This document shows, piece by piece, positions 713-20,903 of a DNA stretch of 24,407 nt. The stretch comes from a virus (lineage: Duplodnaviria; Caudoviricetes). The number at the start of each line of letters is the position of its first letter. Position 1 is the first letter of the stretch. A model generated the notes under the pieces. It saw only the letters and a program-made list of their open reading frames with translations. It was not told where the DNA came from and did no database searches. Where the stretch lies: positions 1 to 24,407 of IMG/VR virus record IMGVR_UViG_3300023435_000092; one strand, given 5' to 3'. The position numbers and the translations under genes are program-made.

Positions 713-726
713 GATAGGTGATTAAA

Positions 727-3700
727 ATGGGAAATGTAAAAACAAACTTATGGCCACCTTTTAAAAGGTCAGGCACAAAAATTACACAAAGAACTGCTGG
801 TGATGTATTTGAGTTAACTGGAAGTACGGACGATGGTAGTACAGATTTTATTTTAGGTAAAGATAAAAATGGTGTTGAAACATTTTCTATTGATACTAAT
901 GGTGCGGCTGTATTTACGTCAATAAGTGGTGCAACATCAATATTTACAGATACAATTTTCTTAGCTGATGGAACAGCTGCTAGTCCATCTATGGCGTGGA
1001 CTAATTTTCCAACAACTGGTCTTTATAATAATGGTGGAAACCAAATAGCATTCGCAGCAGATGGTCAATTAGTTGCATATTTTACTTCAGGTGATGCTAG
1101 GTTTAAAAAGATAGTAACATTCAATGGAGGAATACCTCTATATATTGAAGGTCAAGAGACCGATACTTCTGACGCTGTTATTGCAAGAATAGGGAACTCA
1201 ACAGAATTAACTACAACTGGTAGTAGATTACTAGAACTTTATAATAATAATGTATATACAGATGCGTATCTTAAAGCTTATGTAGACTACAAAGGCGGGT
1301 TTATTGGATCTAATTTTGACACTCGTAACGATGATGCAACTGGTTCGGAATGTTTAAATGAGACAGATTTCGCTACTTCTACTGATTGGACTGAAGCGGG
1401 TGATTTTACTATTGCTTCTGGTTATGCTGAATATAATTGGACTACTGGTGCAGATTCAACAATTACTCAAGCTACAGGTGATTTGGCAATAGCATTAAAA
1501 GCAAGTAAATGGTATGTGTTTGAATATGATATTACTTATACAAATTCACAAGTTAATAACATAAAAGCAACATTACCTGCATCTGTATCTACTGAAGTTA
1601 AAACATTAACTGTTAATACAATAGGAACAGGTCGTAAGGTTTATTTTAAAACATTACATATACCTGGTGATTTTGTAATTAAGGTTGAAGACTTAGGCGT
1701 AACTGTTGATGCTGTATTTAGAATGGATAATGTAAGTGTTAAAGAAGCATTGGGCGGAGATATGAATGCTGCTAATGTAATTGTGAGAGATGAATTAAAT
1801 GCTGTAACTATAACAGATGGTTCATTAATTATATCTGATGGCAAAATAGTATCGTCTACTACTGTATCCGATGGAGAGAAAGCGGTTGAGTTTGCAATAA
1901 CTTCTAATGGATTGGGTGCTGATGAGATAGCATACGGTGATTATAAAACTATTATTACTGATGCTAGTGATGACGCGTCCTCATTAATATTCGGGGATTA
2001 TTATAACTTAGATAAAACAGCTGGTGGTAGTGCATTCAATGTAGGTGTTGTATTTACTGGTGATGACTGGGATCAATGTGTAACCTCTCTTAACCAACAG
2101 CTAACTATAAGTAGTATAACCACAGTTTCAGGAAACGGGGACGACATAAAAATGGAGACTGCCGATGCTGATACTTCGGGATCTGGTGGTAATTTTTATA
2201 TTAGTCTAGGTGACGCTGCAACAAGTGGAACTGGTGGAAGTTTGTATATTAAACCAGGAACTGGCATATCATTAGGTGATGGAAACATTGTTGCTTGTTG
2301 GGATACAACAGGAAGTTCAGCAATAGGTAATTTATTTGTGGGTACTAATACTCCTGGCGATTCAAGATTTATCAGTTCTGCAAGTACTAATGACGGAACA
2401 ACTTACGCAGGGTTATTCCAAGATTCAGATTTCGCTAATGTAGTAACGATTAATAGTAATGGTGATGTAGTTATATCTGGTGACTTAACTGTTAATGGAA
2501 CTACTACTACTATTGATACTACAACTTTATTAGTAGAAGATAAAAACATAGAAATTGGTGTAGTTGGAACACCTAGTGATACAACCGCCGATGGTGGTGG
2601 AATTACACTAAAAGGTGCAACAGATAAAACAATAATATGGGATAACACTAATGATAATTGGACTTCTAATCAACATTGGAATCTAGAAACAGGATTAGAT
2701 TATAAGATTAATAATGTAAGTGTTCTTAATGCAACTACCTTAGGAAGCTCAGTAGTTAATTCAAGCTTAACAAGTGTGGGCACATTAGGAAGCTTGGCTG
2801 TAACCAATGGTATAACAGCGAAGAACTTAACTCTTACAAGTACGTTAACTAGCGAAGATTACTTACTTAGTAATACAGGAACATCTTCTGGACTAGGTGC
2901 TGACGAGATGGCTTATATTAATAAGTATAAAATAGTAACAGCAGCTGGTGATGATGATTCTTCAATGATGTTCGGTAGTTATTACGAATTAGACCAAACA
3001 GCTGGTGGTAGTGCAGTTAATGTAGGTATTGTATTTACTGGCGATACTTGGGATAATTCTATTGTAGCTTTAGATCAAGATTTAAATATAGCAACAGTAA
3101 CAATGTCTTCTGGTAACGCTAATGCTATTGTATTAGAAGCAGCAGATGCAGATGATACAGGCAACGGTGGAAATGTAAATATTAAACTAGGTGCTGCTGA
3201 TACTCAAGGAGACGGTGGAAACTTATACATTGAAACAAATGCAGGTGCTGGAACAGGTGTATCTAGTAGTGTTATATCTAATTGGAATTTAGGTGATAGT
3301 GCTGCTTATGGTAGTTTCTATATAGGTAAGAATGGTGGTGACGGAACAAGCAGATTATTCGTTGCTGGAACTACTAACGATGGAACTACTGATATAATTA
3401 ATTTAATGGATAGTGATTATAGCTCAGTTCACACAGTAGACACTAATGGTCGTGGATATTTCGCAAGTCAAGTTAAAATTGGCGGAGATTCAACTTTCGG
3501 TAATGAATTATTTCATATAGCTTCTGAAACAGATGCAGATATGATTTTGGAACATGTCAAAGATGACGGTAACCCTTTATTTATATTTGATAGAGCAAAA
3601 GGAGATTTAACAACTAAAGCAATAGTAGGTGATGGCACTATTATTGGCTCTGTTGTAGCGCATGGATATGATGGCGTTGCTTATAGAGATGCAGCCAATA

Positions 3701-4110
3701 TTAGATTTGAGGTAGATGGTACACCAGCTGCTGATGATATGCCTGGAAAAATAATGCTTTCAACTTCACCAGCAGGAGCAACACTACCAGTAGCTAGGCA
3801 AACAATATATCAAGATGGAACTATGGAGTTTAATTCTGTTAAAGATAAAACATTTTCGGTAAGTATTGCCGATGATGGTACTATTGTTTTACCTACAGCC
3901 GTGTTTGGAATGTTAGAAGTATTTACAGATGCAGAGTATATGCACGTTTATATAACGGTAGATGGAACAGTAACAAGCGTTTACGCATCTACCAATACAG
4001 CTACAACCGATAGTGATACTAATTTATGTGTATACGATGGCGGAACAGGAGCAGTAATTAAGAACAGATTAGGTGCTACAAAAACAATTAAATATAGGTT
4101 CTTATATTAG
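727..4110 (+). CDS. Long tail fibre / receptor-binding protein with an internal ~200-aa duplication
   Basis: About 1127 aa from ATG727 (SD AGGTGA). G/T/D/S-rich; fibre motifs DGTAASPS...TGLY, GDLTVNGTTTTIDTTTLLVEDKNI and VDGTPAADDMPGKI. Confidence 0.75.
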   Translation: MGNVKTNLWPPFKRSGTKITQRTAGDVFELTGSTDDGSTDFILGKDKNGVETFSIDTNGAAVFTSISGATSIFTDTIFLADGTAASPSMAWTNFPTTGLYNNGGNQIAFAADGQLVAYFTSGDARFKKIVTFNGGIPLYIEGQETDTSDAVIARIGNSTELTTTGSRLLELYNNNVYTDAYLKAYVDYKGGFIGSNFDTRNDDATGSECLNETDFATSTDWTEAGDFTIASGYAEYNWTTGADSTITQATGDLAIALKASKWYVFEYDITYTNSQVNNIKATLPASVSTEVKTLTVNTIGTGRKVYFKTLHIPGDFVIKVEDLGVTVDAVFRMDNVSVKEALGGDMNAANVIVRDELNAVTITDGSLIISDGKIVSSTTVSDGEKAVEFAITSNGLGADEIAYGDYKTIITDASDDASSLIFGDYYNLDKTAGGSAFNVGVVFTGDDWDQCVTSLNQQLTISSITTVSGNGDDIKMETADADTSGSGGNFYISLGDAATSGTGGSLYIKPGTGISLGDGNIVACWDTTGSSAIGNLFVGTNTPGDSRFISSASTNDGTTYAGLFQDSDFANVVTINSNGDVVISGDLTVNGTTTTIDTTTLLVEDKNIEIGVVGTPSDTTADGGGITLKGATDKTIIWDNTNDNWTSNQHWNLETGLDYKINNVSVLNATTLGSSVVNSSLTSVGTLGSLAVTNGITAKNLTLTSTLTSEDYLLSNTGTSSGLGADEMAYINKYKIVTAAGDDDSSMMFGSYYELDQTAGGSAVNVGIVFTGDTWDNSIVALDQDLNIATVTMSSGNANAIVLEAADADDTGNGGNVNIKLGAADTQGDGGNLYIETNAGAGTGVSSSVISNWNLGDSAAYGSFYIGKNGGDGTSRLFVAGTTNDGTTDIINLMDSDYSSVHTVDTNGRGYFASQVKIGGDSTFGNELFHIASETDADMILEHVKDDGNPLFIFDRAKGDLTTKAIVGDGTIIGSVVAHGYDGVAYRDAANIRFEVDGTPAADDMPGKIMLSTSPAGATLPVARQTIYQDGTMEFNSVKDKTFSVSIADDGTIVLPTAVFGMLEVFTDAEYMHVYITVDGTVTSVYASTNTATTDSDTNLCVYDGGTGAVIKNRLGATKTIKYRFLY
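1900..3450 (+). repeat. Intragenic duplication: copy 1 ~1900-2460, copy 2 ~2881-3450
   Basis: GLGADE...LDxTAGGSAxNVGxVFTGDxWD...TNDGTT occurs twice. DNA aaacagctggtggtagtgca occurs at 2015 and 2996 (offset 981 bp). Confidence 0.9.
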
Positions 4111-4118: not shown

Positions 4119-4268
4119 ATGGGACAAAAATATGGTAATAATAATATAAAAGTTTCAGAAGATGGTTCTGCTAATGATTATATAACTATTGATGGTTGGC
4201 ACGATGCTGGTGTAGACAAAAATATAGTAAACGGATACGAAACATTTGTATCAGTAGAGAAAATATAA
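4119..4268 (+). CDS. Small hypothetical protein (49 aa, MGQKYGNNNIKVSEDG...), absent from the ORF track
   Basis: SD AGGTGA before ATG4119; open to TAA4266-4268; fills the gap after the fibre gene. Confidence 0.65.
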   Translation: MGQKYGNNNIKVSEDGSANDYITIDGWHDAGVDKNIVNGYETFVSVEKI

Positions 4269-4282
4269 TAGTAGGGATTAAT

Positions 4283-4582
4283 ATGGATATGGAGAAGTTT
4301 GTAATGACACAATTTGATAAAGTAGACAAAAAACTAGATACAGTAGTGAAAGGTATAAACGATCTAAAAACAGAAGTGCGAGTAACAAACCAAAAAAATT
4401 GTGATGATCACGAAGTTTTTAATGGAAGAATAGAAAAAGTAGAAACTAAAATTAAGATCCCAATTACTTCTAATACCTTCATTTCAAGTTTGTTAGGGCA
4501 AACACCCGTACATAAATTAATTAATATAGTATTCATGTTAGTTGTTATTGTAGGTGTATTTTTAGGAATAAAATTTATATAG
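4283..4582 (+). CDS. Coiled-coil protein with a C-terminal TM helix (holin/lysis-associated-like)
   Basis: Likely start ATG4283 (MDMEKF); heptad-like N-terminus; hydrophobic C-terminus LINIVFMLVVIVGVFLGIKFI; lies after the fibre genes. Confidence 0.55.
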   Translation: MDMEKFVMTQFDKVDKKLDTVVKGINDLKTEVRVTNQKNCDDHEVFNGRIEKVETKIKIPITSNTFISSLLGQTPVHKLINIVFMLVVIVGVFLGIKFI

Positions 4583-4591
4583 GTGATTTAA

Positions 4592-4819
4592 ATGGTAGTA
4601 AAGAAATTTGATAATAGTATAACTATTAAAAAAGTAGGTAAAGCCATGGCTGCATTATTAGTTGGTGGATTGGCTAGTTACGGATTTAATTTAGATTCAC
4701 AAATCGCTATGTCTGCAAGTGTATTAATTTTGTTAATAGCTGACAATGTACTTAAACATAAATATAAATTTGATTTAATTGAATATATAAAAAAATTAGT
4801 TTCCAGAATAAATTTGTAG
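4592..4819 (+). CDS. Putative holin (2 TM segments)
   Basis: 75 aa, two hydrophobic segments, basic C-terminus, SD AGGTGA, last gene of the structural operon. Confidence 0.5.
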   Translation: MVVKKFDNSITIKKVGKAMAALLVGGLASYGFNLDSQIAMSASVLILLIADNVLKHKYKFDLIEYIKKLVSRINL

Positions 4820-5038: not shown

Positions 5039-5043
5039 AATAT

Positions 5044-5265
5044 TTACTCCTTTAGTTTTTTACCACATCTAGGGCAAAAATCTATATTACTTGTTATAGA
5101 TTTTTTATTTCCATTTTTATCTTCATATAGTATTGTATAAAATACAATGTCTTCTGTGACATTAGATCGTATTATTTCTATAGATTCATTCCAACCTTCT
5201 TTAGCATCTCGTTTATTTATTTGTTTAATCCTGTCACATTCGTGTATTTCATAATCTTCACTCAT
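5044..5265 (-). CDS. Small Zn-ribbon-like protein
   Basis: HEC ... FCPRCGKKL motif; starts 2 bp after the chaperonin stop. Confidence 0.65.
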   Translation of the reverse strand: MSEDYEIHECDRIKQINKRDAKEGWNESIEIIRSNVTEDIVFYTILYEDKNGNKKSITSNIDFCPRCGKKLKE

Positions 5266-5267
5266 AT

Positions 5268-6776
5268 TTACGCATCCATTCTTCCCAATAGTATATTATT
5301 TATCCTTAAAATAGATTTTGTTACTTCCATCGCACTATTTAAAGCTTGTACTTTAATTAATAATGGTTCTATTACTTCTGACATATCAGCCGCTGTTCCG
5401 TTCATTACATCTATGCCTACATTTGTGTTGTTCTTATTCTGTGATCTTGCCTTTAAGAATGTTTCAAACTGATTAGATCCTGAACTTGTAGCTAATGACA
5501 TTGGTATAATCTCAATAGCTTCAGCTAATTTCTGTATTATTAATTGTTCAATACCCTCAAATTTTAATGCGTAATCTCTTAGTTTATTAGCTACTGCTAA
5601 CTCACAAGATCCTGCACCAGTTAGTATTAAATTACTCTTCTTAATTGAATCTACAACTTTAATAGCGTCCTCTATGCTTCGTTCCATTTCTTCTATGAAA
5701 CTATTATTAGTACCTCTAATAATTATTGTTCGTGCTTTAGTGTTTTTATTAGTTATTTTAGCGTATTCTTCACCGTATTTATTGACAACTTTAAAACTAC
5801 CTACACCTAATTGAAAAGGGTTTAAATCTTTAATACTATTAACCACACTAGCACCAGTAATTTTAGATATATGTTCTAAGTCTTCCATCTTAACTCTCTT
5901 AATACATGATATTCTTTCTTTTGTTAAGTAGTCTTTAACAATATCAGACACCATTCCGTTACATAACACAACGTCAGCACCTATTTTTTTAATACTAGAT
6001 ACTATTTCCCTTGACAATAATTCTTCTTGATCCATATAAGTTGATAATTGGCTAGGGTCTGACATATTTATATCAGGAACTTTAACTACTAACTCTCTAT
6101 TAATTAATAAAAAGTGCGCTACTGGTTTATCTTTTGACATATCTTTATGTATTAATTCCTTATCAATAACAAATCCTTTTACAGTTTCAATTTCATTAGC
6201 GCTTGATCCTTTAATAGTACAAGTAAATGTGGTATCCTTGCTATCAATATTTCTAAGTGCTGCTGCTACATCCTTAAATAATTTAGGTTTACCTGCAATC
6301 TTACCTGTTAATGTAGTCTTAACTATATTCTCTATATCTTCATCCTTAACTTTACGAGATAATTCTTTATAATATTTAATTGCTTCATCAATACCGATCT
6401 CGTAAGTATCAATAATCTTCTGTGGGTGTTGGTTATATGGTGACTTTCTCAATTCTCCAGCTTTCTTTAGTAAAGCACCTGTCAATACTATTGAACTGGT
6501 AGTCCCGTCTCCTACTTCTTCATCCTGTGTTCTAGCAATATCAACTAACATCCTAGAAATAGGATTATCAATATTAAGTTTTTGAATTATAGTAGCACCG
6601 TCATTAGTTATTGTTGATTTATCTGAACCTTGGAATAAAATTAGTTTGTCCATACCTTTTGGACCTAGTGTTGTTGCTAACTCATCAGCTGTAGCTTCTA
6701 CAACCATTGAATTTTGTGTTAAAGCATCAATACCACGAGCTTGTGAATTGATTGGTTTTGCATTATTTTCTGTCAT
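5268..6776 (-). CDS. ths: Group II chaperonin (thermosome subunit)
   Basis: TLGPKGMDK, TITNDGATI, QDEEVGDGTTS P-loop, ERSIEDA catalytic Asp, GAGSCEL, VIEPLLIK; apical SDPSQL...EE protrusion typical of group II rather than GroEL. Confidence 0.95.
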   Translation of the reverse strand: MTENNAKPINSQARGIDALTQNSMVVEATADELATTLGPKGMDKLILFQGSDKSTITNDGATIIQKLNIDNPISRMLVDIARTQDEEVGDGTTSSIVLTGALLKKAGELRKSPYNQHPQKIIDTYEIGIDEAIKYYKELSRKVKDEDIENIVKTTLTGKIAGKPKLFKDVAAALRNIDSKDTTFTCTIKGSSANEIETVKGFVIDKELIHKDMSKDKPVAHFLLINRELVVKVPDINMSDPSQLSTYMDQEELLSREIVSSIKKIGADVVLCNGMVSDIVKDYLTKERISCIKRVKMEDLEHISKITGASVVNSIKDLNPFQLGVGSFKVVNKYGEEYAKITNKNTKARTIIIRGTNNSFIEEMERSIEDAIKVVDSIKKSNLILTGAGSCELAVANKLRDYALKFEGIEQLIIQKLAEAIEIIPMSLATSSGSNQFETFLKARSQNKNNTNVGIDVMNGTAADMSEVIEPLLIKVQALNSAMEVTKSILRINNILLGRMDA

Positions 6777-6850
6777 ATATACACCCCTTACCTACATACC
6801 AAAACATTTATATACGTCTTGGATATAATAGGTAAAAGTAATATATATAC

Positions 6851-7054
6851 TTATCGTTTAATTCCTAGATACTTTTTGATTTTTGTAGAGAAATTATCTT
6901 TACATAATTTTAGCTTTGTATTTTCTTTATAAAGCTCACCATATTTTTTATGTAAATCTTGATATTCTTGTAAATTTACTAATTTTACATATGTTGATCC
7001 TATATCTATTTCTCTATTAAGATATTTTGTATCTATTCTATAAAACTTAAGCAT
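6851..7054 (-). CDS. Hypothetical protein (67 aa)
   Basis: ORF track; tightly packed in the operon; SD-like AAGGAA. Confidence 0.55.
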   Translation of the reverse strand: MLKFYRIDTKYLNREIDIGSTYVKLVNLQEYQDLHKKYGELYKENTKLKLCKDNFSTKIKKYLGIKR

Positions 7055-7055
7055 A

Positions 7056-7355
7056 TCATTCCTTCTTTTTTTTAGGTGTTACTGATTTACTTAATAATTT
7101 TTTTGGTACTTGTTTAGGCACTTCCACTAATTCAAATGTTTTCAAGTCTTTACTAAAACTTATATTATATTTTTCAGTGTCAATATCATTCTCACCACAT
7201 AGTTTAGCAAATAACTCCTGTCTAATGTGATTTAAACCTTTTATAACAAATTGTGACTTAGCTATAATTGAGTTGTGCTCATTAAATAATTGAAATAAAT
7301 TATTTAATTCAACTTGTTCTGATTGTTTTAATGCGTATATTTTGTTTTCTACCAT
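7056..7355 (-). CDS. Hypothetical helical protein (99 aa) with a basic C-terminal tail
   Basis: SD GGTGA upstream; ORF track. Confidence 0.7.
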   Translation of the reverse strand: MVENKIYALKQSEQVELNNLFQLFNEHNSIIAKSQFVIKGLNHIRQELFAKLCGENDIDTEKYNISFSKDLKTFELVEVPKQVPKKLLSKSVTPKKKKE

Positions 7356-7375
7356 TATATCACCATTTTTATTTT

Positions 7376-7427
7376 AAAAATGCGATAGGGTATATTAGTT
7401 TTTTGAATAAAACTAGCTCCTACCACA
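7376..7427 (-). terminator. Long hairpin plus U5 tract on the minus strand
   Basis: UGUGGUAGG pairs with CCUAUCGCA (2 G-U pairs, valid only on the - strand); inner UAGUUUU/AAAACUA stem; followed by UUUUU. Confidence 0.6.
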
Positions 7428-7428
7428 A

Positions 7429-7629
7429 TCACTTCCTATTTTTAACCTTAACAACTTTTGGTGTTTTTGCTGCATAATATATTAAGTAAAATAATGCTCC
7501 GATACCTGTAAGAAATAACCATGCTAAAAATGCAAACCAGTTAAATTTCTTTTTAGACATGAACGTGTATATCTTAGTTTCTTTTACTATACTATAACCG
7601 TCCATAATATATTCGTCTACTTCACTCAT
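7429..7629 (-). CDS. Small membrane protein
   Basis: KKKFNWFAFLAWLFLTGIGALFYLIYY hydrophobic hairpin; TAATG coupling to the upstream gene. Confidence 0.7.
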   Translation of the reverse strand: MSEVDEYIMDGYSIVKETKIYTFMSKKKFNWFAFLAWLFLTGIGALFYLIYYAAKTPKVVKVKNRK

Positions 7630-8360
7630 TAAATCCTCTCCTCTAACATTTCTTTAACTTCTTTCTCTAAGTAATCACATTCAATAACCCTAGAACCTGT
7701 CTTGCTTAGGTGTACTAAAAATAAATCTCTTACCTTAATACCCCATTGTTCTAATAAATACTTATACATTGATAGTTGTAAACAGTATTTGTTATAACTA
7801 TTATCTACTAAGTGTTTAATTGGTCCTTTTAATTTGTTATTATACTTATCATTAGCTACTATATATTCATTTGTTTTCCAGTCGCCCAAAGAAACAGTTC
7901 CATCACTATTATAAATTATAAAGTCAATCTGTCCAGCAACTTTATAACAATCTGAATATACTATAGGTTCTGTGCATAATAATTCACAACTCTCTAATAG
8001 TTTTTCAGTAAACATTATTCCATTCATTGCGTGTGGGTACTTTTCTGTTTCATCTCTATTAAGTAACCGACCGTAGTCCATATTTTTTTCTAATAGTTCA
8101 TGAACTGCAGTGCCGTAACTACACGCCTTATCACGTTTCTCATTCCATCTGTTTTTCAAAGCGTATTCACTAATATTTTCCTTATAAGCACACGCCTTTA
8201 GTATTTTACCATCGGGGTCAAACTCATTTGCATACTTTGATATAAGTGTTGTAACTGATATAAACTCCTCAGCGGCAAACCTATACACATGATCGTCCTC
8301 TGTGAAGTTAATTTGTTTCTGTTTAAGTTTGATAATATGTTGTATTTCTTTTTTATCCAT
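7629..8360 (-). CDS. PD-(D/E)xK RecB-family exonuclease
   Basis: SVTT, GTAVHELLE, TE...AGQID...GDWKT and QLSMY motifs; no Cas4 C-terminal Cys cluster. Confidence 0.85.
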   Translation of the reverse strand: MDKKEIQHIIKLKQKQINFTEDDHVYRFAAEEFISVTTLISKYANEFDPDGKILKACAYKENISEYALKNRWNEKRDKACSYGTAVHELLEKNMDYGRLLNRDETEKYPHAMNGIMFTEKLLESCELLCTEPIVYSDCYKVAGQIDFIIYNSDGTVSLGDWKTNEYIVANDKYNNKLKGPIKHLVDNSYNKYCLQLSMYKYLLEQWGIKVRDLFLVHLSKTGSRVIECDYLEKEVKEMLEERI

Positions 8361-8818
8361 TATTTATCACTTCCATCTTTCCAAAAGATACTTTTATTTA
8401 AATATTGTTGCTGTCGTTTATCATCCCAGCAATCTATTCTACTTAAATTACTTAATCTATCAGCGAATTTTAATATCATCCCACGCTTTGTTTTAAGTCT
8501 AGGGAAATAATATCCGTACTGATCTTTGCTACCTTCATGTGTTACTTCCATTACTAAATCAGCAACATCCTTATTGAACTCTTTAACAAGCTCCTCATAG
8601 GTGGTGTCTGTGTCTTCTATCGTATCGTGTAAATATCCTGCTGCAATTAAATTATCGTCCCAATCATAAAATAAACTATTTAATGAATTTAATATATTAC
8701 CAACAATATAACAGTGTTTATTAAAATAACTATCTTCGTTATCTGGATCACTATCATCAACTTGACCACGATGTTTTTTAATAGCAAATACATATGCTTT
8801 ATCTACTAATTTACTCAT
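8360..8818 (-). CDS. Stand-alone HD-domain hydrolase, RelA/SpoT HD (Mesh1/SAH)-like
   Basis: AYVFAIKKHRGQ, YFNKH, AAGYLHDTIEDT, EFNKDVADLVMEVT and LKFADRLSNL match the SpoT-type HD signature. Confidence 0.85.
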   Translation of the reverse strand: MSKLVDKAYVFAIKKHRGQVDDSDPDNEDSYFNKHCYIVGNILNSLNSLFYDWDDNLIAAGYLHDTIEDTDTTYEELVKEFNKDVADLVMEVTHEGSKDQYGYYFPRLKTKRGMILKFADRLSNLSRIDCWDDKRQQQYLNKSIFWKDGSDK

Positions 8819-9048
8819 CTAACCACTCCTATTGTAATTTCTTTCATAGCGAAAAACACCGTTACATCGGCAGGTATTTCTTTTATATCCAATACTACTC
8901 CAGCCCAGAAATCTTTTCCCCACGATGCCTTAAAATAACAGGGAAGGTTATTTTTAACCTGCTTCCAGTTATCTTTGTTTAGCACTATATCTTCTAGTTC
9001 TATTCTTCTTGATATTTTAATCATTTTTACCTTCTTCCAACCACTCAT
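8815..9048 (-). CDS. Hypothetical protein (true start may be ATG9024)
   Basis: ORF track; ATGA overlap with the HD gene. Confidence 0.6.
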   Translation of the reverse strand: MSGWKKVKMIKISRRIELEDIVLNKDNWKQVKNNLPCYFKASWGKDFWAGVVLDIKEIPADVTVFFAMKEITIGVVR

Positions 9049-9235
9049 ACCTAACTGGCATTATTAAATTCCATATTTTCCATTGCAAAATTTTAATAAT
9101 TGTTTTCTTATTATAGAATTGCCAAACTATTTTTTCGGCATCACCAAATAATAGTCTACCATTAATTTTAGATTCTGGTAAAAATACATATCCTTTATCT
9201 TTTAAAAATAAATCTTCTTCTTTATATTTAGTCAT
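9017..9235 (-). CDS. Hypothetical protein (72 aa)
   Basis: SD AGGTGG upstream; ORF track. Confidence 0.6.
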   Translation of the reverse strand: MTKYKEEDLFLKDKGYVFLPESKINGRLLFGDAEKIVWQFYNKKTIIKILQWKIWNLIMPVRYEWLEEGKND

Positions 9236-9245
9236 TCAACCACCT

Positions 9246-9389
9246 TTAAATCTCTTTTATTATTTGGTTGTTTACCCATTCTGATAATGATATTTGGTTC
9301 TTAGCGCAGAACTTTTGTAGTTTCTTTTTGTTTGCTGATTCTAAACTTACTAATGTCGGTACTCTTTTTATATATCTTCTTACGTTCAT
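9246..9389 (-). CDS. Ribbon-helix-helix DNA-binding protein (47 aa), absent from the ORF track
   Basis: MNVRRYIKRVPTLVSLESANKKKLQKFCAKNQISLSEWVNNQIIKEI: beta strand, helix, then S-L-S-E-W-V helix; ATGA overlap with the upstream gene. Confidence 0.7.
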   Translation of the reverse strand: MNVRRYIKRVPTLVSLESANKKKLQKFCAKNQISLSEWVNNQIIKEI

Positions 9390-9538
9390 TTATTCACCCA
9401 CATAGGATATGTTAATTTAATAACACCTATAAAAAAAACTATTAAAAACCAAAGACTATAGTTCATTGATAAGTATACCCCTAATATTGTTATTAATACT
9501 CCTACTGCTGTATAAAATAAGTTTTCTTCATTATTCAT
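9386..9538 (-). CDS. Small 2-TM membrane protein (50 aa, MNNEENLFY...)
   Basis: Start at ATG9538 via TAATG coupling; two hydrophobic segments. Confidence 0.65.
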   Translation of the reverse strand: MNNEENLFYTAVGVLITILGVYLSMNYSLWFLIVFFIGVIKLTYPMWVNK

Positions 9539-10044
9539 TAATAATCCCCTTCCTTTACGAACTTGAATAAGTCCACTGCTAACTTTTTTGTTCTTGGTAG
9601 TACAAAATTTGTGTCGTACTCTGGTGTGCATTTTATCTCGTTTGCAATTATGTGCGGTACAACCTTAAGTATAGCTAACATTTTTATTTGATCTTCTTTA
9701 CTGTGTTCTATTACAGGGCCTTCTGTTGTTTTTGGTAAAGTATCTAAATCTTTCATTGAATTATTTGCAGAAGCTTCATATTGCATTTTAGATACTTTCA
9801 TTGTTTCTGTTTCCTTTATTTCTTCGTGTGCTGTTACTGATTTCTTTGGCACTGCTGTTACTTCTATGTATGTTAGTATGTCGTTCTTTGATGATTCGCT
9901 TTTGATACTGGTAAAGTCCACACGTGTGCCCTTGTCCATTTTCTTAACTCTTTCTTCAAACAAATCGTCGCCAACGTTAAGCCACGCGTCGTCAATTAAT
10001 ACTGATTTGTTTTTTATACTTACTGCCCTTAATGTTCCTAACAT
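9538..10044 (-). CDS. Hypothetical protein with a possible N-terminal OB-fold (ssDNA-binding)
   Basis: SD GGTGA; beta-rich N-terminus with KGTRVDFT, charged linker and helical C-terminus. The fold is inferred. Confidence 0.5.
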   Translation of the reverse strand: MLGTLRAVSIKNKSVLIDDAWLNVGDDLFEERVKKMDKGTRVDFTSIKSESSKNDILTYIEVTAVPKKSVTAHEEIKETETMKVSKMQYEASANNSMKDLDTLPKTTEGPVIEHSKEDQIKMLAILKVVPHIIANEIKCTPEYDTNFVLPRTKKLAVDLFKFVKEGDY

Positions 10045-10796
10045 TACTCATCACCTGACCCTAGTTCCTCTTTAGATAATTTTATTTCATCTTCTTTAAC
10101 ATTATATTTCATAAATAATCCACCTAAGCTAATTAAGTTATATGTGATATTATTATCAATAGTAATAATTGCAGATATATAATATTTATTTTTTCTAAAC
10201 CAACTATATCTATCAGGTATATATTCAACTATATCATCTATTCTAACAAAGTCAGGCGCTTGTAAGAGTTTATCTGGTGGTGTAATCAATGAAAACTCAA
10301 TAGGCTCAACTGTTTTAAATGCTTTTATACCATCAGCAGCTATTTCTACTTCTCCAGTAGGCTTAAATGATCCGCCTATAGATAAACTCTTTGATGATAA
10401 TATATAAATTAATACTTGCCTAGCTTCTTGTGATAAACCTTCTACTGGAAGTTTATTACACTGTTTAGATTTTTGAAGAGAATCTAAACTTTCCAACTTC
10501 TCAACTCTTGCTCTTAGTTTGCATACATCAGAATCGTCTAAGACATCTTCTATATCTGACTTCATATCATCTATGTCATCATCTGTATCATCTAATAATA
10601 CTTCTAGTTTCTTCATCTTTTGTGACAAATCTTTTATTAAAAGTTTGTCGCTCTGTTTAGATTCTTGCAGAGAATTTAAACTTACTTCTAACTCTTTGAT
10701 TGATCTGAAAGCTATATCCAATGTTTCCATACCTAATTTATTATTTATTCTAATTCTTTTCTTATCTACTTTGATCTTATCTAACCATTTACCCAT
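10044..10796 (-). CDS. Coiled-coil protein with an internal 21-aa repeat
   Basis: Likely start ATG10796 (MGKWLDK); SLNSLQESKQSDKLLIKDLSQ versus SLDSLQKSKQCNKLPVEGLSQ. Confidence 0.7.
   Translation of the reverse strand: MGKWLDKIKVDKKRIRINNKLGMETLDIAFRSIKELEVSLNSLQESKQSDKLLIKDLSQKMKKLEVLLDDTDDDIDDMKSDIEDVLDDSDVCKLRARVEKLESLDSLQKSKQCNKLPVEGLSQEARQVLIYILSSKSLSIGGSFKPTGEVEIAADGIKAFKTVEPIEFSLITPPDKLLQAPDFVRIDDIVEYIPDRYSWFRKNKYYISAIITIDNNITYNLISLGGLFMKYNVKEDEIKLSKEELGSGDE
10428..10682. repeat. 63-bp imperfect direct repeat (10428-10490 and 10620-10682)
   Basis: About 50 of 63 bases identical by manual alignment; offset 192 bp, in frame. Confidence 0.85.
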
Positions 10797-10800
10797 AATA

Positions 10801-11043
10801 TCACAACCTATCCTCATTTTCCATTATTCCTTTTTCTATTGTTATTCTATATCTGTTTTTAAACTTGTATTTCTTTCTTAATTTCTTCTTTTCCATTAAT
10901 GCTAAGTTTCTTGACCATACTAATTGCGGGAGGCTTGTTTTGCCATCCTTTTCTGCAAATACATAGTAGTTAGGCATAAAATTCCATTTCCATCCTGTAA
11001 ATGTAATAGTGTGTATTTGTTTTTGAACAAACAAAGTCCACAA
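10801..11043 (-). CDS. Hypothetical basic protein
   Basis: ORF track; GGAGTGA upstream; start uncertain. Confidence 0.5.
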   Translation of the reverse strand: MWTLFVQKQIHTITFTGWKWNFMPNYYVFAEKDGKTSLPQLVWSRNLALMEKKKLRKKYKFKNRYRITIEKGIMENEDRL

Positions 11044-11044
11044 A

Positions 11045-11176
11045 TCACTCCATATACATTTTAAGGAATATAGTATTACCGTGTTTTATTAGGTGTGTAG
11101 TATATCCTCTGTCTTCGTACTCTTTAATTAACTCTTCTTGTTTCCATCTTCCCATTCTAGTTATATCAATTTTCAT
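11045..11176 (-). CDS. Small hypothetical protein (43 aa, MKIDITRMGRWKQEELIKEYEDRGY...)
   Basis: SD AGGTGAG; ATGA overlap; fills the operon; absent from the ORF track. Confidence 0.6.
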   Translation of the reverse strand: MKIDITRMGRWKQEELIKEYEDRGYTTHLIKHGNTIFLKMYME

Positions 11177-11289
11177 TCAATCTCACCTATTTCCTTTCCA
11201 CATCTAGGACATAATATAAAGTGCCCGTCTGTGATTACGTCGTCCTTTGTGAATTGTCCACAATCACTACAATAATAGTCTAACATCAT
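11173..11289 (-). CDS. Zn-ribbon micro-protein (38 aa)
   Basis: MMLDYYCSDCGQFTKDDVITDGHFILCPRCGKEIGEIE; two CxxC motifs; ATGA coupling at both ends. Confidence 0.7.
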   Translation of the reverse strand: MMLDYYCSDCGQFTKDDVITDGHFILCPRCGKEIGEIE

Positions 11290-11447
11290 CTGTCATCGCC
11301 CCATACTGCTTCTGATACTTTATAAGATAACTCGCCATAATACTCTTTGAACTTTTCAACTGTTGAGCAATCACTACATACATAGTTCTCATCACTGAAG
11401 TCTAACCTTTCAATTTTACCACAAATAACACATTTAATTTCTTCCAT
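11286..11447 (-). CDS. Zn-ribbon micro-protein (53 aa)
   Basis: MEEIKCVICGKIERLDFSDENYVCSDCSTV...; CxxC-x14-CxxC. Confidence 0.7.
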   Translation of the reverse strand: MEEIKCVICGKIERLDFSDENYVCSDCSTVEKFKEYYGELSYKVSEAVWGDDR

Positions 11448-11519
11448 TGCAACCAATTCCCAATTTTATACTAAAATTACTCCTGTATAATAAACATTAT
11501 TCTAATGTTAATTACCTAT

Positions 11520-11759
11520 CTAATAATACAGTATTTGTATTATATTATATAAATATAATATAACGTGAAAGTATATAAGGGGATATGCCGCTACATATTG
11601 TGTTGAGAATTAGTAGACCACAACATATTGTGGTTTAAGGAGGAGAAAGTGGGGAAAATAGTAATGAGTAGGAGGGTAATCCTTATAGCAAAACCGTCCC
11701 CACATATCTCAGAGTTTTATGTAACTATAGTATGTTATTAAAGTATTTAAATGTTGCTC
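11520..11759. other. Structured non-coding region with several inverted repeats
   Basis: 11-bp IR at 11540-11563; ACCACAA-N4-TTGTGGT at 11617-11634; ACATATTGTG twice; GTGGGGA...TCCCCAC at 11649-11703; minus-strand TTTAAATA box at 11744-11751. Confidence 0.55.
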
Positions 11760-13763
11760 CTACATTTTCCTATAACATCTAGGTTTGTACTCATAAATGT
11801 TACCTGATACTATTAACTTATTAAGGAAAAAATCTATATCTTCCCCGAACATTTCTTTTATCCTGTCGTATTCTAAATCACTATAGTCGTCAAACGCTTT
11901 AGATACTAGGTCTAATGTTGTTTTAGCCTCTGTATTCATGCCGCTCTGCAACAAACTTAGGTCTGTTTTAGTATTACGGATCTTAATTCCAGCGGACTCG
12001 TAGGAGTCTATTATTAACTCTTTAGCAAATAGTAAATCTTCTATATTAATCTCGTTGCTGAACCTTAACTTAGCACTAGCCTCGGATAATCTCTGTATTG
12101 TATTAGCTACCCTTAAATTGAAACCTTTTAAACTCTCAGAACCTTCCTTTATGTTCTTGAATAGATTAAACGCCTCACGCTTATAATCGTTAACTAATTC
12201 CTTTGGTACTACTGGGTTAAACTTCTTAGCGTGACTAATATACTTCCTAATGAAATCAACGTCTAAGTCTACACTGTCATCTATATTATTATTATAACTA
12301 AATATAGAGTCGTAAATATCTTCCATGTTGTCGTTAATTACTGTATTGTCAATTAAGAAGACTAAGTCAAACCTAGATAATAGAGACGGACTGAACGGAA
12401 GCTCCTGTATTCCTTTATGGTTAAATACGTTATTACGAGGATTAGCTGATGCTATAATACTGGTCTCAGTTTTTAGTACTTGGTGTTGGTTGAATTTATG
12501 TATGTTAATCTTACCGTCTTCCATAGCTGTGTGTAATGAAGCTTTATCGTCATCGCGCATCTTGTCAAACTCGTCAATTAATACTATACCTTTATTACCT
12601 AGTACTAATGCTCCAGGTGTTAAAACAACTTCCTTACTACCCATAAACTCCATTTGCTGAACGGATGCGGTTAATCCTACTCTAGTAGTATCACCACCAT
12701 TAGCTGTCTGAACTCTAGGAACTATATTTCTTACACTGTTCATTAGTTCGGATTTGGCTGTACCTGGGTTTCCTACCATCATTAAATGTATCTCACCACG
12801 CTTTCTATTATTAATGTGTGTTTCACGTGTAACGCCGCCAACTAATTGTAATAGTATAGCTTTTTTAATATTGTCCATACCCTTTACCTTAGGGACAATA
12901 TACTTAATTAACTCATTTACATGGTTATTACTTAGAGCTAATGATTTTAGTTTATCTATATCATTAGGTTCTATTGTGGTATTTTCTAAGCTGTCCTTGT
13001 CAGGTTGTATGTCTACTACCTCTAAATACCAATCCATTGTAGTGCTTTTATTCTCGTGGTCTTTTAATCGTAAGTACCCTATAAATATATTACTTAACCC
13101 TTCCTCAAACCTATTAACTAAGTTTTCAGGGATAAAACATTCTAACTGTATGGGCTTAGATGCCATTTCGCTATCCTCGTAAGGCTCTTGTATTAGCAAT
13201 CTTTGAGTTATTTGCGTGTCGCAGTGTTCTTTCTTTAATTTAAAGTATTTAGTATTATTACATTCAGCTTCAGGACATTCATATGGCTTCTCTATGTTTA
13301 AGCCGTCAATATCAATCATGAAAGTAGTCTTACACTTACCGCACTCGTACGCTGCTTTCTTAAGTGTAGGCTTAGGGAAGGTGTGCTGTATCACCATTCC
13401 CCTTGCTTGTATTAGTTTATCTATATGTTTAGTAGTGACCGACCCGAGGTAGACCTTAAGGGGATGGAGATGGTTAGAGGTCGCAACTCGTATATCATCA
13501 ATTAGTTCCATCCTTTCCTTGTCTAATTCAGATCGGTCTTCTAGTATACTAATAAAACTTGATTTAATTAAACTGTCCAATTCCTGTGTCCCTAGTTTAG
13601 CTTCTTTAAAAATAGTGTTTGAATCTTGCAGCTCCTTATAGTCTAGTTTGAATATATTATTATTATCCTTATCTATGATATCATCTATATAATCTAAATT
13701 ATTATCAATCAAAAAATCTTTTGTATATCGGATTAAAGAATCCATTTCAACCATGCTAACCAT
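11760..13763 (-). CDS. mcm: MCM replicative helicase (full length, ~667 aa)
   Basis: Zn finger CGKC...CPEAEC; Walker A GNPGTAKS; Walker B IDEFDKM; Arg finger SRFD; sensor-2 R; C-terminal wH-like GNIYEYKP. SD GGAGGT supports ATG13763. Confidence 0.95.
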   Translation of the reverse strand: MVSMVEMDSLIRYTKDFLIDNNLDYIDDIIDKDNNNIFKLDYKELQDSNTIFKEAKLGTQELDSLIKSSFISILEDRSELDKERMELIDDIRVATSNHLHPLKVYLGSVTTKHIDKLIQARGMVIQHTFPKPTLKKAAYECGKCKTTFMIDIDGLNIEKPYECPEAECNNTKYFKLKKEHCDTQITQRLLIQEPYEDSEMASKPIQLECFIPENLVNRFEEGLSNIFIGYLRLKDHENKSTTMDWYLEVVDIQPDKDSLENTTIEPNDIDKLKSLALSNNHVNELIKYIVPKVKGMDNIKKAILLQLVGGVTRETHINNRKRGEIHLMMVGNPGTAKSELMNSVRNIVPRVQTANGGDTTRVGLTASVQQMEFMGSKEVVLTPGALVLGNKGIVLIDEFDKMRDDDKASLHTAMEDGKINIHKFNQHQVLKTETSIIASANPRNNVFNHKGIQELPFSPSLLSRFDLVFLIDNTVINDNMEDIYDSIFSYNNNIDDSVDLDVDFIRKYISHAKKFNPVVPKELVNDYKREAFNLFKNIKEGSESLKGFNLRVANTIQRLSEASAKLRFSNEINIEDLLFAKELIIDSYESAGIKIRNTKTDLSLLQSGMNTEAKTTLDLVSKAFDDYSDLEYDRIKEMFGEDIDFFLNKLIVSGNIYEYKPRCYRKM

Positions 13764-13781
13764 AAAGGGCGACCTCCGCAA

Positions 13782-14175
13782 ACTTTTAAATAAAACTTAA
13801 AAGTATAATAGTTATAACAAGCTAGTATATATATGTTTTGTTAGCGTTTAATCAGGACACTAAAAAAAGACCCTAAAAAAGACCATATTTTTAGTTTTTA
13901 TTGCACATACATACTATTTCATACATAGATATATAAAACTAATGATAAATTTAATGGAAACAATAATCTAACAGCAACTGTGTGGAGAACCCTATAGAGT
14001 TATTCCTCTATAATATATATACATAATCACGTTATATAATAAAAAAACCTACTGTATACCTTCGGGGCGATACACTGTTAACCCACACCTTACATGAAAT
14101 GTATAGTATGTGTTTATAATACTTTTGTATGTTTAGGTTATATTAGCAATAAATAGCTAAAAAAGGAGTGATTTT
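13782..14175. promoter_or_regulatory. AT-rich divergent intergenic region: bidirectional promoters, candidate replication origin
   Basis: ~390 bp without a credible ORF at the strand switch; CTAAAAAA(A)GACC tandem pair at 13860-13884; several TATA-like boxes; adjacent to MCM. Confidence 0.5.
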
Positions 14176-14382: not shown

Positions 14383-14586
14383 ATGGTTAAAGCGGTAACA
14401 TTGAAAGATGAAGTGATAACATTATTAAATAGAATTAGAGATGATAGTAGATTTGGTATGTCATACTCACAATCTATACTATTTTTGTTTGGTGAAATAG
14501 ATAAGCTTGAACAGGAAGCGTTGAAGGATAGAAGGAACTATGTTTTAGCTATAGCTAAACTTGAAAAACATGGAATTAAGTTTTAG
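14383..14586 (+). CDS. RHH / archaeal antitoxin-like DNA-binding protein
   Basis: MVKAVTLKDEVITLLNRIR...MSYSQSILFL resembles the KTITISDEVYxxLxxxK...SFSxxIxxL pattern. Confidence 0.6.
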   Translation: MVKAVTLKDEVITLLNRIRDDSRFGMSYSQSILFLFGEIDKLEQEALKDRRNYVLAIAKLEKHGIKF

Positions 14587-14595
14587 GTGATAAGA

Positions 14596-14943
14596 ATGGA
14601 TGAGGAATATTTTAACAAGGATTCATTAAAGTATTTCACAATGTATTACTTTCTTATTAAGGATACATCTATTAATATAGATAATTTAATAACTAAGTTT
14701 GATGAATATAGTAATAATAAAGGATTAGATATTATTCTAAGTAATAAACAGAAGGAGGCATTATACTATTATTACATACAAAAGAAGTCTAGCGTTGAAT
14801 TTGAGTTAATCAATACGAAGAATCATAATGTTATTGAACAGAATTTGTTTAAGGCAGACTTGGAAATTAAGTTCCTGAAGGAAAGTGTCGCACACTGGAA
14901 GGAAGTAGTGTCTAAGTTGGAAAGATTAGAGGAGATTGAATGA
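14596..14943 (+). CDS. Hypothetical protein
   Basis: SD AGGTGA before ATG14596; LSNKQKEALYYYY helix and a C-terminal coiled coil. Confidence 0.65.
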   Translation: MDEEYFNKDSLKYFTMYYFLIKDTSINIDNLITKFDEYSNNKGLDIILSNKQKEALYYYYIQKKSSVEFELINTKNHNVIEQNLFKADLEIKFLKESVAHWKEVVSKLERLEEIE

Positions 14944-15320
14944 GAGAAATAAAATTTAGAGCATGGGATAAACAAATTAAAGAAATGTTAAGTGTTGATA
15001 AAATTGAATGGGATAGAAAATTAGTTTATATTAGAAGCTCAACAAGAGATCATATGGAAACTCCACGAAGAATATCTGAAGATATATGTTGCTTAATGCA
15101 ATACACCGGTCTTAATGATAAGAACGGAAAGGAAATCTACGAAGGAGATATAGTAGAGTATTTTAAGAGGCGTTATTTTATTAAATTTCATTTAGCTAAT
15201 TTTATGTTATCAAAGAAAGAATCTAATTTTTTAGGATTAAATAGTGCCATATATTCTCAAGACGGAGTATTAACAGTAATAGGTAACATACATAAAAACC
15301 CTAAATTATTAAAGGAGTGA
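14940..15320 (+). CDS. yopX: YopX-family phage protein
   Basis: MREIKFRAWDK, LMQYTGLNDKNGKEIYEGDIV and VIGNIHKNPKLL signatures. Confidence 0.9.
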   Translation: MREIKFRAWDKQIKEMLSVDKIEWDRKLVYIRSSTRDHMETPRRISEDICCLMQYTGLNDKNGKEIYEGDIVEYFKRRYFIKFHLANFMLSKKESNFLGLNSAIYSQDGVLTVIGNIHKNPKLLKE

Positions 15321-15325
15321 GGATT

Positions 15326-15430
15326 ATGGATGTTATAGAACATGATATTAAATGTATTAAGTGTGGAAAGGTAATGAGGACATTCTTGCCATTGGAAGAA
15401 TATATTTGCGATGAATGTAATAAGGAATAG
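15326..15430 (+). CDS. Zn-ribbon micro-protein (34 aa), absent from the ORF track
   Basis: MDVIEHDIKCIKCGKVMRTFLPLEEYICDECNKE; SD GGAGTGAGG. Confidence 0.7.
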   Translation: MDVIEHDIKCIKCGKVMRTFLPLEEYICDECNKE

Positions 15431-15499
15431 TAACCTTTATATAGTACTATATATATTATATATAGGAAGAAATTCCTTATAAATTATAGGTGATAAATT

Positions 15500-15742
15500 A
15501 TGGCAGGGCCAGAAAAAGAGTTCCGTAGTGGAGCAATTAAAGCAACAGTGTGGAAGAACGAAGTTGAATTTAAAGGCGTTAAGACAGATGTATTTAAAAT
15601 AACACTTACTAAATCATACAAAGATAAAAATGGTGAATGGAAAGATACTAACCAATACACTATGAATGATGCACTTAAAGCGGCAGAATTACTTAGAACT
15701 GTGGCTAATCAGTATAACATTGAAGAGGTTAAGAGGGATTAA
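15500..15742 (+). CDS. PC4/YdbC-like nucleic-acid-binding protein
   Basis: PEKEFRSGAIKATVWKN...ITLTKSYKDKNGEWKDTN; SD AGGTGA; TATA CTTTATATAG upstream. Confidence 0.6.
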   Translation: MAGPEKEFRSGAIKATVWKNEVEFKGVKTDVFKITLTKSYKDKNGEWKDTNQYTMNDALKAAELLRTVANQYNIEEVKRD

Positions 15743-15757
15743 TTTCCTTCATTTTAT

Positions 15758-15826
15758 AGCAGGGTAGTATAATAGTATTACGCAGTTTGATCAACTGAGA
15801 TGCGAGTTCAATTCTCGTTCCAGCTA
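15758..15826 (+). tRNA. Atypical tRNA-like gene (centred anticodon GAU; short anticodon arm)
   Basis: Acceptor AGCAGGG/TCCAGCT-A (one A-A mismatch); T8A9; D-arm GTAT..TTAC; T-arm GCGAG-TTCAATT-CTCGT; anticodon arm CAGT-TTGATCA-ACTG; no encoded CCA. Confidence 0.7.
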
Positions 15827-15895
15827 TTATAGAAAGACTTATAAAGATTGAATCCCTCTTTATAAATATATGCAGACTGACAAAGAAGTGACAAT

Positions 15896-16366
15896 ATGGG
15901 AAAAGTAGGAAGACCACCAGTAAAAACATCATTTAAGAAAGGTGATGCACGTAGCAGAGCTGCTGCTAGTAAAGGTGGGAAGACAAAGAAAATACAAACT
16001 AAAATACTTAAGGAACTTAAAGATATTGCTAAACTTGATTCTAATAATTACATGGAAAAGATAGATGTAATTAATCCGTCAACAGGTGACAGGAAACAAA
16101 CCTACTCAATCCTATTAGCTGGAGAGAAAGGGTTTGACTATTTATTATCTCGTAGATTTACTGAGATAGAAGAATCAATACAACAAGCGATGGCTAAGAC
16201 TAATAATCCTAAGGAACACATGGAATTGATGAAGCAAGGATTCAATACACTGAAACAATTAAGAGAAACATTGTACGGAACTAATACTAATATTAAAGCT
16301 GACGTTAAGACAGAAGATGTATCAAAAGACTTATGGGACAAATTAGGGCAGAAGTGGAAGAAATGA
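15896..16366 (+). CDS. terS: Putative terminase small subunit
   Basis: Directly upstream of TerL with ATGA overlap; basic N-terminus GRPP..FKKGD..ASKGG; helical body. Confidence 0.65.
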   Translation: MGKVGRPPVKTSFKKGDARSRAAASKGGKTKKIQTKILKELKDIAKLDSNNYMEKIDVINPSTGDRKQTYSILLAGEKGFDYLLSRRFTEIEESIQQAMAKTNNPKEHMELMKQGFNTLKQLRETLYGTNTNIKADVKTEDVSKDLWDKLGQKWKK

Positions 16367-17717: not shown

Positions 17718-17763
17718 TCACAGAACTTGTATACTATATAACTTATCTCTTGGAGGAATAAAT

Positions 17764-20497: not shown

Positions 20498-20844
20498 GTG
20501 GATTCGCAGAGTATGAAAAATCAGGTTACGATCCAGTTAAGTGGAACGATGCCATTGAGAAGAGATATCCTAATGGAGGGGTGTGTGATTATTGTGGGAA
20601 GAATGCTGAGTTTTTGCACGTTTATGAAGAGAGTGTTTGTCGTAATTGTATTGAAGATATTAATAAGCATTGTAATACTTCTTTTCCTATTACCAGTATT
20701 GAGTCTGGTTTTTGTGACTTTTGTGGCCACTATTCTTCTATACCCGAGATGCAAGGACAAGTAAGAATAGATATATGTACTGAGTGTATGGCACGTATAG
20801 GTAAACAAACAAGAACAAACAACCACAAAAAAATGAAGCTTTAG
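20494..20844 (+). CDS. Double Zn-finger protein
   Basis: CDYC, CRNC, CDFC and CTEC; ATGA overlap with the upstream gene. Confidence 0.7.
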   Translation: MSGFAEYEKSGYDPVKWNDAIEKRYPNGGVCDYCGKNAEFLHVYEESVCRNCIEDINKHCNTSFPITSIESGFCDFCGHYSSIPEMQGQVRIDICTECMARIGKQTRTNNHKKMKL

Positions 20845-20846
20845 AC

Positions 20847-20861
20847 GAAAGCTTTATAAAC
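20847..20861 (+). promoter_or_regulatory. BRE/TATA promoter for the protease-capsid operon
   Basis: GAAAGCTTTATAAAC, about 45 bp upstream of ATG20904. Confidence 0.55.
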
Positions 20862-20903
20862 TACTTTTCACTTCTATTTTTATATACCTTCGGAGAGGTT
20901 GAT

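Follow-up and report, generated by a model that had tools for sequence, protein, structure and literature searches.

Viral thermosomes (group II chaperonins) have been described in marine archaeal viruses of 55-100 kb, and have been proposed to be a mark of large genomes (PMC5649160, PMC5434244). Here we consider a thermosome gene on a 24,407-nucleotide stretch of a tailed archaeal virus (IMG/VR record IMGVR_UViG_3300023435_000092, positions 1 to 24,407; hereafter the window), which belongs to a closed genome of 34,045 bp that also encodes an MCM replicative helicase. The magroviruses, or Aoguangviridae (Magrovirales), resemble this virus in capsid, Zn-ribbon portal and protease type, in having MCM and in lacking an integrase and a tail sheath, and those of group A also carry a thermosome. 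Their genomes, however, are of 65-100 kb (PMC5434244, PMC10768690), and each of the 26 that Philosof et al. analysed (PMC5434244) encodes PolB, primase, clamp and clamp loader, versus 34 kb and MCM only here. In addition, their thermosomes group with those of Marine Group II, whereas that of the window branches elsewhere in our best trees. Thermosome-bearing viruses of the virioplankton (Marine et al. 2017, PMC5649160) are likewise archaeal and tailed, and combine a group II chaperonin with a capsid and portal of halovirus-like type, but are known from long contigs of 55 and 99.3 kb, one of them with polB.

The Druskaviridae (HCTV-1, HVTV-1) provide the best named match for the major capsid protein (MCP), at 27-29% identity, and a weak portal match (18-22%), but they are haloviruses of 102-105 kb, the HCTV-1 portal is without the Zn-ribbon motif, and no Druskaviridae record was among the matches listed for chaperonin or MCM. 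The features by which that family is known, genomes of about 100 kb, a preQ0 pathway and ribonucleotide reductase (PMC8651126), were not found here by size and gene scans. HFTV1, BJ1, HSTV-1 and MFTV1 are closer in size (31-46 kb) and have MCM (23-31% identity), but gave neither an MCP nor a chaperonin match. These four viruses rely on the host polymerase. As MCM is well represented in archaeal viruses of 31-46 kb, the MCM half of our finding is ordinary, and it is the thermosome that is unusual. Virus families described for DPANN archaea, by Wu et al. 2024, include the Zhurong-, Gonggong-, Houtu-, Houyi-, Nuwa-, Kirin- and Ditingviruses (PMC13573593). The literature searched (which included PMC11705971, PMC11706807, PMC11310336 and bioRxiv 10.1101/2025.02.15.638363) contained no thermosome in a compact archaeal virus, no biochemical study of a viral thermosome and no virus family described for Iainarchaeota; Wu et al. 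2024 (DPANN viruses, Nat Microbiol), which could already cover the lineage, and the supplements of provirus surveys lie outside that literature.

The window is one contig, and a fragment of the 34,045-bp circle. A near-identical record, IMGVR_UViG_3300022871_000058 (G001; 34,577 bp, 99.99% identity), has overlapping ends (427-532 being the same as 34472-34577), and the two records, which have different break points, jointly close the circle. In sequencing run X1, contigs of 20,821, 136 and 13,178 bases, minus three 30-base overlaps, give exactly 34,045, and the contigs of runs X7, X8 and X14 cover 30 of 30 bins of the stretches compared. The genome, with about 49 genes and 32.6% GC, is complete, circularly mapping and compact, which bears out the original prediction of a small-genome archaeal tailed virus with its own thermosome and MCM; a candidate reading as a fragment of a genome of about 115 kb (CheckV 30%) was rejected. 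The ~9.6 kb outside the window hold head-closure and tail genes and an HNH gene (adaptor, neck, HNH, likely terminator, tail tube, 413-aa tape measure, hub and fibre-region genes). All 23 of the sequencing runs listed with this sequence are labelled salt lake metagenome, and 13 contain at least half of its words. No long virus-host junction was present among the listed run-contig matches which, with the lack of an integrase, suggests a lytic life.

Sequence and predicted structure identify the product of the open reading frame (ORF) at 5268-6776 as a group II thermosome whose ATPase motifs are intact. It matches Pfam PF00118 (E 7.8e-120) and scores 382-394 bits with NCBIfam thermosome models versus 48-65 with GroEL, all below the cut-offs because the protein is divergent (40% identical to its nearest cellular subunits). 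The AlphaFold model (pLDDT 86.5) has archaeal thermosomes (Mm-cpn, Thermococcus) as its best Foldseek matches; Mm-cpn (3IZI, 3KFB; D386A mutants are among the structural matches) and Thermococcus KS-1 (1Q3R) resemble it in ATPase motifs and in fold (TM up to 0.87), but are only 33-37% identical to it; the viral protein is some 45 residues shorter, has a shortened N-terminus and no C-terminal tail, and carries a 4-residue lid deletion which, of the four closest aligned proteins, the window's alone shows. The motifs GPKGMDK, NDG, GDGTT and TGK are kept, as is D370, which aligns with D393 of Thermococcus KS-1, a residue that we take to be catalytic. In 5 of 5 proteins of the lineage the ATPase motifs persist with small substitutions at 33-53% identity, versus 52-64% for five cellular pairs, which suggests fast divergence with the active site held, and a ring of this protein would likely be ATP-active.

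The MCM (667 aa) matches PF00493 (E 3e-62) together with OB and lid domains, and 14 of the 15 strain differences listed for it in run X7 lie at third codon positions. An unnamed protein is 50% identical to it, and a scan of metagenome contigs (13 of 64 parts) found only distant MCMs (25-38%). Between the two small genes that follow the fibre gene and the small terminase subunit (TerS), the chaperonin and MCM are the only large genes, as had been noted at the outset, and the next ORFs are of 257 aa (unassigned) and 243 aa (an exonuclease). The absence of a recognisable polymerase or integrase also held once the rest of the genome was inspected: the part missing from the window holds tail genes, and neither PolB nor a tyrosine integrase was found in ORF scans (36 and 14 proteins) or in six-frame family searches.

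In a second virus, G049 (32,743 bp, linear, 36.7% GC), the genes follow the same order: MCM, small genes and then the thermosome, which lies close to the end of the MCM arm and is convergent on the fibre genes; its identities to the window are 57% for the large terminase subunit (TerL), 49% for the hub, 39% for MCM, 33% for the thermosome and 32% for MCP, and it gave no PolB or integrase match. A 14-kb fragment, G048, matches from MCM through the head genes. That gene order is kept at such low MCM and thermosome identities suggests an old, roughly family-level lineage. By the family rule of Liu et al. 2021 (20-50% of proteins shared, at >30% identity and E <1e-25), G049 shares 10 of 49 proteins (one of the 49 being a duplicate fragment), a borderline value that would place the two viruses at the lower edge of family level, with G027 sharing 4, G018 3 and G017 1 of 49. 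In a TerL scan of 41 of the 64 parts of IMG/VR only four records exceeded 50% identity, namely two of this virus, G048 and G049, and the next near-full or long matches were at 27% or less. Closer kin exist as unnamed proteins (thermosomes at 52, 45 and 39%; MCPs at 74, 70, 69 and 57%); a thermosome homologue (P0003) and the 57% MCP (P0125) both come from contigs of 33,233 bases, probably the same contig.

The genome has Caudoviricetes hallmarks in sequence-level family matches (HK97-type MCP, portal, terminase and prohead protease), and its tail appears to be of the non-contractile type, with a PF18906 tube, the tape measure and no sheath match among 14 tail-region proteins. Its size of 34,045 bp falls well below the range of Aoguangviridae, and primase, clamp and clamp loader gave no match in its family searches, nor did PolB. 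The earlier proposal of a Magrovirus/HGTV-1 type of head stands in its first part: MCP and portal are 34% and 27% identical to those of G041, a 100.9-kb IMG/VR record with PolB and thermosome that we take as magrovirus-like from size and gene content, with no name behind it, and the Zn-ribbon motif is present in 12 of 17 portals compared, including that of G041. The HGTV-1 part was rejected, as MCP and portal had no BLAST match there and only TerL did (24.7%), and HGTV-1, of the Halomagnusviridae, has a sheath. Named MCP matches beyond the Druskaviridae included vir519 (25%); TerL reached only 24-26% among the matches listed from INPHARED; and in the MCP tree G041, HCTV-1 and the proviruses form a group that excludes the window's clade (support 100). 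The suggestion of an undescribed lineage agrees with the lack of a close described relative among the records searched, and we consider these archaeal tailed viruses of 33-35 kb, which retain a divergent thermosome, to form a lineage of roughly family rank that is apparently undescribed.

We searched 47 IMG/VR records, 26 of them chosen for their thermosome and 21 for their MCP, and other compact viruses among them also carry thermosomes; three records (G017, G018 and G027) have terminal repeats. G017 (44,041 bp, 58% GC, complete) has thermosome and MCM, no PolB or integrase match, and a distant MCP (30%); G018 (38,504 bp, complete) has a thermosome after its fibre genes and no MCM match; these two thermosomes are apparently separate captures. 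In G019 and G017 the gene lies before the terminase or portal, and in G002, G003 and G016 (L005, L006, L022) it is inside the tail module, between the adaptor and terminator genes, an arrangement that suggests a substrate from the tail in these viruses. In the LG+C20 tree the thermosomes of G002, G016, G018 and G019 nest (98) in the phylum of G053, which includes a protein named Woesearchaeota by NCBI, the magrovirus-like thermosomes group with Euryarchaeota and Thermoplasmatota, and those of the window's lineage fall in Iainarchaeota; with the differing gene positions, these separate placements point to repeated capture of host thermosomes. G053 itself (L160; 0.9 Mb) is titled ‘uncultured Methanosarcinales’, a title that is probably wrong, as its thermosome groups with the Woesearchaeota type. 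Two other proteins, P0299 (1057 aa) and P0300 (1047 aa), are fusions of two thermosome domains in tandem; P0299, which carries the name Ca. Freyarchaeota at NCBI, has a full-length member of its cluster on a 119-kb contig.

For the host, we have a lead. The best thermosome matches in a GTDB scan were genomes of the Iainarchaeota clade (37-40%), and the LG+C20 tree put the viral thermosomes inside Iainarchaeota (99 and 95; 99 and 98 in a second tree; supports are SH-aLRT, and the thermosome trees held no Poseidoniales cellular sequence); in reduced trees the window's thermosome with P0002 stayed there in 2 of 2. A contig of genome G476 (G476:C4, 154,759 bp) contains at about 105000-131300 (L440, L441) a provirus of ~26 kb with an integrase at its edge and the same head-tail gene order, flanked by ribosomal-protein/AlaRS genes on one side and RNase HII/oxidoreductase genes on the other (named by eye from sequence); the flanking genes match G050 best, L11 weakly so. 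G507 holds a viral contig, and both genomes belong to the phylum of a genome titled Ca. Iainarchaeum, in which 3 of 215 genomes matched the TerL profile, one of these matches being the G476 provirus. In the Woesearchaeota-containing phylum the MCP profile matched 1 of 400 genomes, weakly and partially, and a scan of GTDB genomes for MCP, based on the close alignment, gave 32 pattern matches, none of them confirmed. The proteome is not acidic (D+E 14%, median pI 6.1), which argues against a salt-in halophile, such organisms having acidic proteomes. We would rank Iainarchaeota first, at a little short of an even chance, archaea outside DPANN a good way behind, and other DPANN slightly lower still. 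The provirus MCP is 68% identical to that of the complete virus G027, and no tRNA was found at the provirus edges.

We favour, with moderate confidence, the proposal that this is a lytic virus of a small-genome DPANN archaeon which uses its own MCM and the host polymerase, and whose own thermosome ring folds virion proteins. The viral MCM would unwind viral DNA, the host polymerase and replisome would be borrowed for its synthesis, and the viral thermosome would form its own, likely ATP-active, ring to help fold capsid or tail proteins, raising yield. A virion-protein substrate is favoured by the TATA-like box at -38 of the thermosome, which in a motif scan resembles those 5′ of TerS, portal and protease; by GC content at third codon positions (thermosome 0.185, MCP 0.203, MCM and TerL 0.33-0.35); and by the tail-module location in G002, G003 and G016. 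The chaperonin is most likely a yield-raising accessory, with no absolute need for it by this capsid type.

A number of observations weigh against this proposal or its parts. As regards the genome, run X1 may be the source of the window's DNA, and IMG/VR labels G001 linear and 30% complete, probably because that estimate leans on relatives of ~100 kb. Family searches miss divergent viral genes (MCM 0/4 and PolB 2/4 in near-complete large records), so ORF size matters: no unassigned non-structural ORF exceeds 257 aa, PolB frames in controls measure 773-933 aa (G041 and G006 being positive), and only the 257-aa orphan is large enough to hide an integrase. As regards the host, the reduced trees placed G049 with P0302, and P0003, in Iainarchaeota in only 1 of 2 each (2 of 6 placements thus disagreeing); approximately unbiased tests do not reject other donors (Woesearchaeota phylum p 0.48, Aenigmatarchaeota 0.43, magrovirus-like 0.41, the last being a grouping never seen in the trees built); FastTree puts the thermosome near Woesearchaeota-labelled rows; and the thermosome branches are long and compositionally biased. 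MCM was unplaced in its tree, and BLAST with MCM favours the Woesearchaeota-containing phylum (~91/215 genomes at E <= 1e-62 vs 16/215). The G476 and G507 MCPs are 40-42% identical to the window's and belong to another MCP clade. A search of window positions 4408-24407 against 401 Woesearchaeota-phylum genomes, a weak search in which only two candidates per genome were scored and with no spacer search of Iainarchaeota made, gave no spacer-like match among the 150 listed, which were thermosome homology or short and of low identity (this search and the thermosome copy tally below include unpublished genomes).

As regards the role of the chaperonin, G027 (33,967 bp, complete; no thermosome, MCM, PolB or integrase match) and the G476 provirus have this capsid type (MCP 43% and 42%) with no chaperonin gene, and only 2 of the 21 records picked by MCP alone, most of them fragments, have one. 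The thermosome lies on the MCM arm, outside the late operon, and that of G049 has no TATA box 5′ of its start. Since G027 and the provirus manage without the gene, and could use the host thermosome, obligate dependence of the capsid was the weakest part of the original prediction. A bolder version of our proposal, that this is an undescribed family of ~33-35 kb lytic Iainarchaeota viruses whose thermosome (4% of the genome) has become, by co-evolution, a machine devoted to the folding of virion proteins, with several independent captures by compact DPANN viruses of this head type, we regard as doubtful.

It is unlikely, in our view, that the chaperonin instead works for the early phase of infection and leaves the capsid aside, its client being the viral MCM or its effect a general gain in folding capacity for a host that is under stress and has a reduced genome. 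The gene lies on the same arm as MCM in the window and in G049 alike, and this would fit such a role, which Philosof et al. 2017 argued from gene position for the magroviruses (PMC5434244), as would the existence of related capsids without chaperonin; but G018, G002, G003, G016 and G019 have a thermosome and no MCM match, often amid structural genes, and the codon bias and promoter-like box of the window's gene resemble those of late genes. Less likely again is that the viral subunit makes no ring of its own and mixes into the host thermosome, changing its substrates. Phage T4 gp31 adapts GroEL, and most of the candidate hosts possess a single thermosome gene (3 of 3 in the Iainarchaeota clade; one match in nearly all genomes listed), into whose rings a subunit with trimmed termini might enter; against this, 40% identity would make mixing harder, the complete ATPase site is kept, and the lid deletion is peculiar to the window's protein. 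A passenger gene (recently captured, decaying or mis-assembled host DNA), although consistent with divergence, sub-threshold NCBIfam scores and truncated termini, is highly improbable given the gene's GC (31% vs 32.6% for the genome), intact motifs, same position in G049, and the P0003 and P0125 contigs of equal length; host contamination or mis-assembly in particular was rejected as largely refuted by the single 13,178-base run contig, which joins the thermosome to viral genes.

The features of the window are collected in Table 1.

Table 1. Features along the window (start..end, strand) and the matches on which their assignment is based
Position	Strand	Feature	Basis or remark
718..4110	+	1130-aa virion protein, likely tail fibre/adhesin, last of late operon	PHROG 6002 virion structural protein, E 9e-19; after tail module in full record
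4196..4819	+	Two small genes, products of 128 and 75 aa with hydrophobic segments	No Pfam, PHROG or NCBIfam match
5268..6776	-	Group II chaperonin (thermosome subunit), 502 aa	ATPase motifs kept; C-terminal tail lacking; lid shorter by four residues
6777..6850	-	Intergenic stretch with TATA-like box TATATAAA, 38 nt 5′ of thermosome start	Predicted own promoter, motif scan
7629..8360	-	PD-(D/E)XK exonuclease, 243 aa	PHROG 298 E 4.5e-31, PF12705; 47% partial match in G048
8360..8818	-	HD-domain phosphohydrolase, 152 aa	PF13328 E 3e-11, PHROG 990
9538..10044	-	168-aa protein, common to G049 (30%)	Atlas matches are unnamed viral clusters only
10044..10817	-	257-aa orphan, largest unassigned ORF of non-structural arm	No match in Pfam, PHROG or Atlas searches
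11760..13763	-	MCM replicative helicase, 667 aa	From ATG at 13763
13764..14175		AT-rich intergenic region between divergent genes, with a switch in strand bias	May hold early promoters or an origin
14383..15742	+	Small genes: 67-aa protein common to G048/G049, variable accessory slot, YopX, 80-aa protein	80-aa protein 38-58%
15757..15827	+	tRNA-like element, Ile-GAT, unusual C after anticodon	ARAGORN; Rfam 42.3 bits, gathering 29
15896..17703	+	Terminase small and large subunits	TerS start 15896; small subunit by position, 28-31% to G049/G048
17764..19194	+	Portal with Zn-ribbon motif	CxxC...CxxxxC at residue 92
19205..21839	+	Mu gpF-like head protein, 116-aa Cys-rich protein, prohead protease/scaffold	
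21842..22993	+	Major capsid protein, 383 aa, Magrovirus/Druskaviridae type	PHROG 24667 E 7e-27; HCTV-1 28%; tree
23730..24407	+	5′ part of 299-aa protein, likely head-tail adaptor	By position; tail module continues in G001

The fibre gene has an internal duplication within 1997-3196 (copies of ~115 bases, 80% identical and ~980 bases apart), and the fibre region is densely variable in run X7. A lysis role for the two small genes after it is a guess from position. The sign of the GC skew changes at ~14 kb, within or near the divergent intergenic region; those of the window, G049 and G048 have 23-27% GC and share no 11-mer or longer that could serve as a common origin motif. At the accessory slot (window 14586-14601; L003 141-442; L002 1-307) G001 has 286 extra bases between 16-base direct repeats that include a ribosome-binding motif and start codon; run X1 shows the insert as a minority bubble (depth 4.3 vs 16.6), and L002 has different sequence 5′ of YopX. 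This looks like gene cassettes exchanged at common translation-start motifs. The tRNA-like element was not found in G048 or G049, and G027 has a tRNA-Trp just 5′ of TerL. Outside the window, the tail region (L001 14918-15748) encodes a 276-aa transglutaminase/LapG-like cysteine protease, also present in G027 and G034, which possibly acts on the host surface; a metallophosphoesterase gene sits in its place in G049. The HNH gene (L003 10909-11517), an HNH-AP2 endonuclease between the neck and terminator genes, may be optional, as joints in runs X7 and X14 skip ~700 bases there.

These findings mean that a virus need not be large to carry a thermosome. With its closed 34-kb genome of ~49 genes, a syntenic relative in G049 and relatives that have a similar capsid but are free of the chaperonin, this virus offers a short list of possible substrates together with natural controls. 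If the host is indeed of the Iainarchaeota, a lytic virus lineage would be added for a phylum with no described family in the literature searched; and if the thermosome is a dedicated folding machine, this would be the simplest system in which to find the substrate of a viral group II chaperonin.

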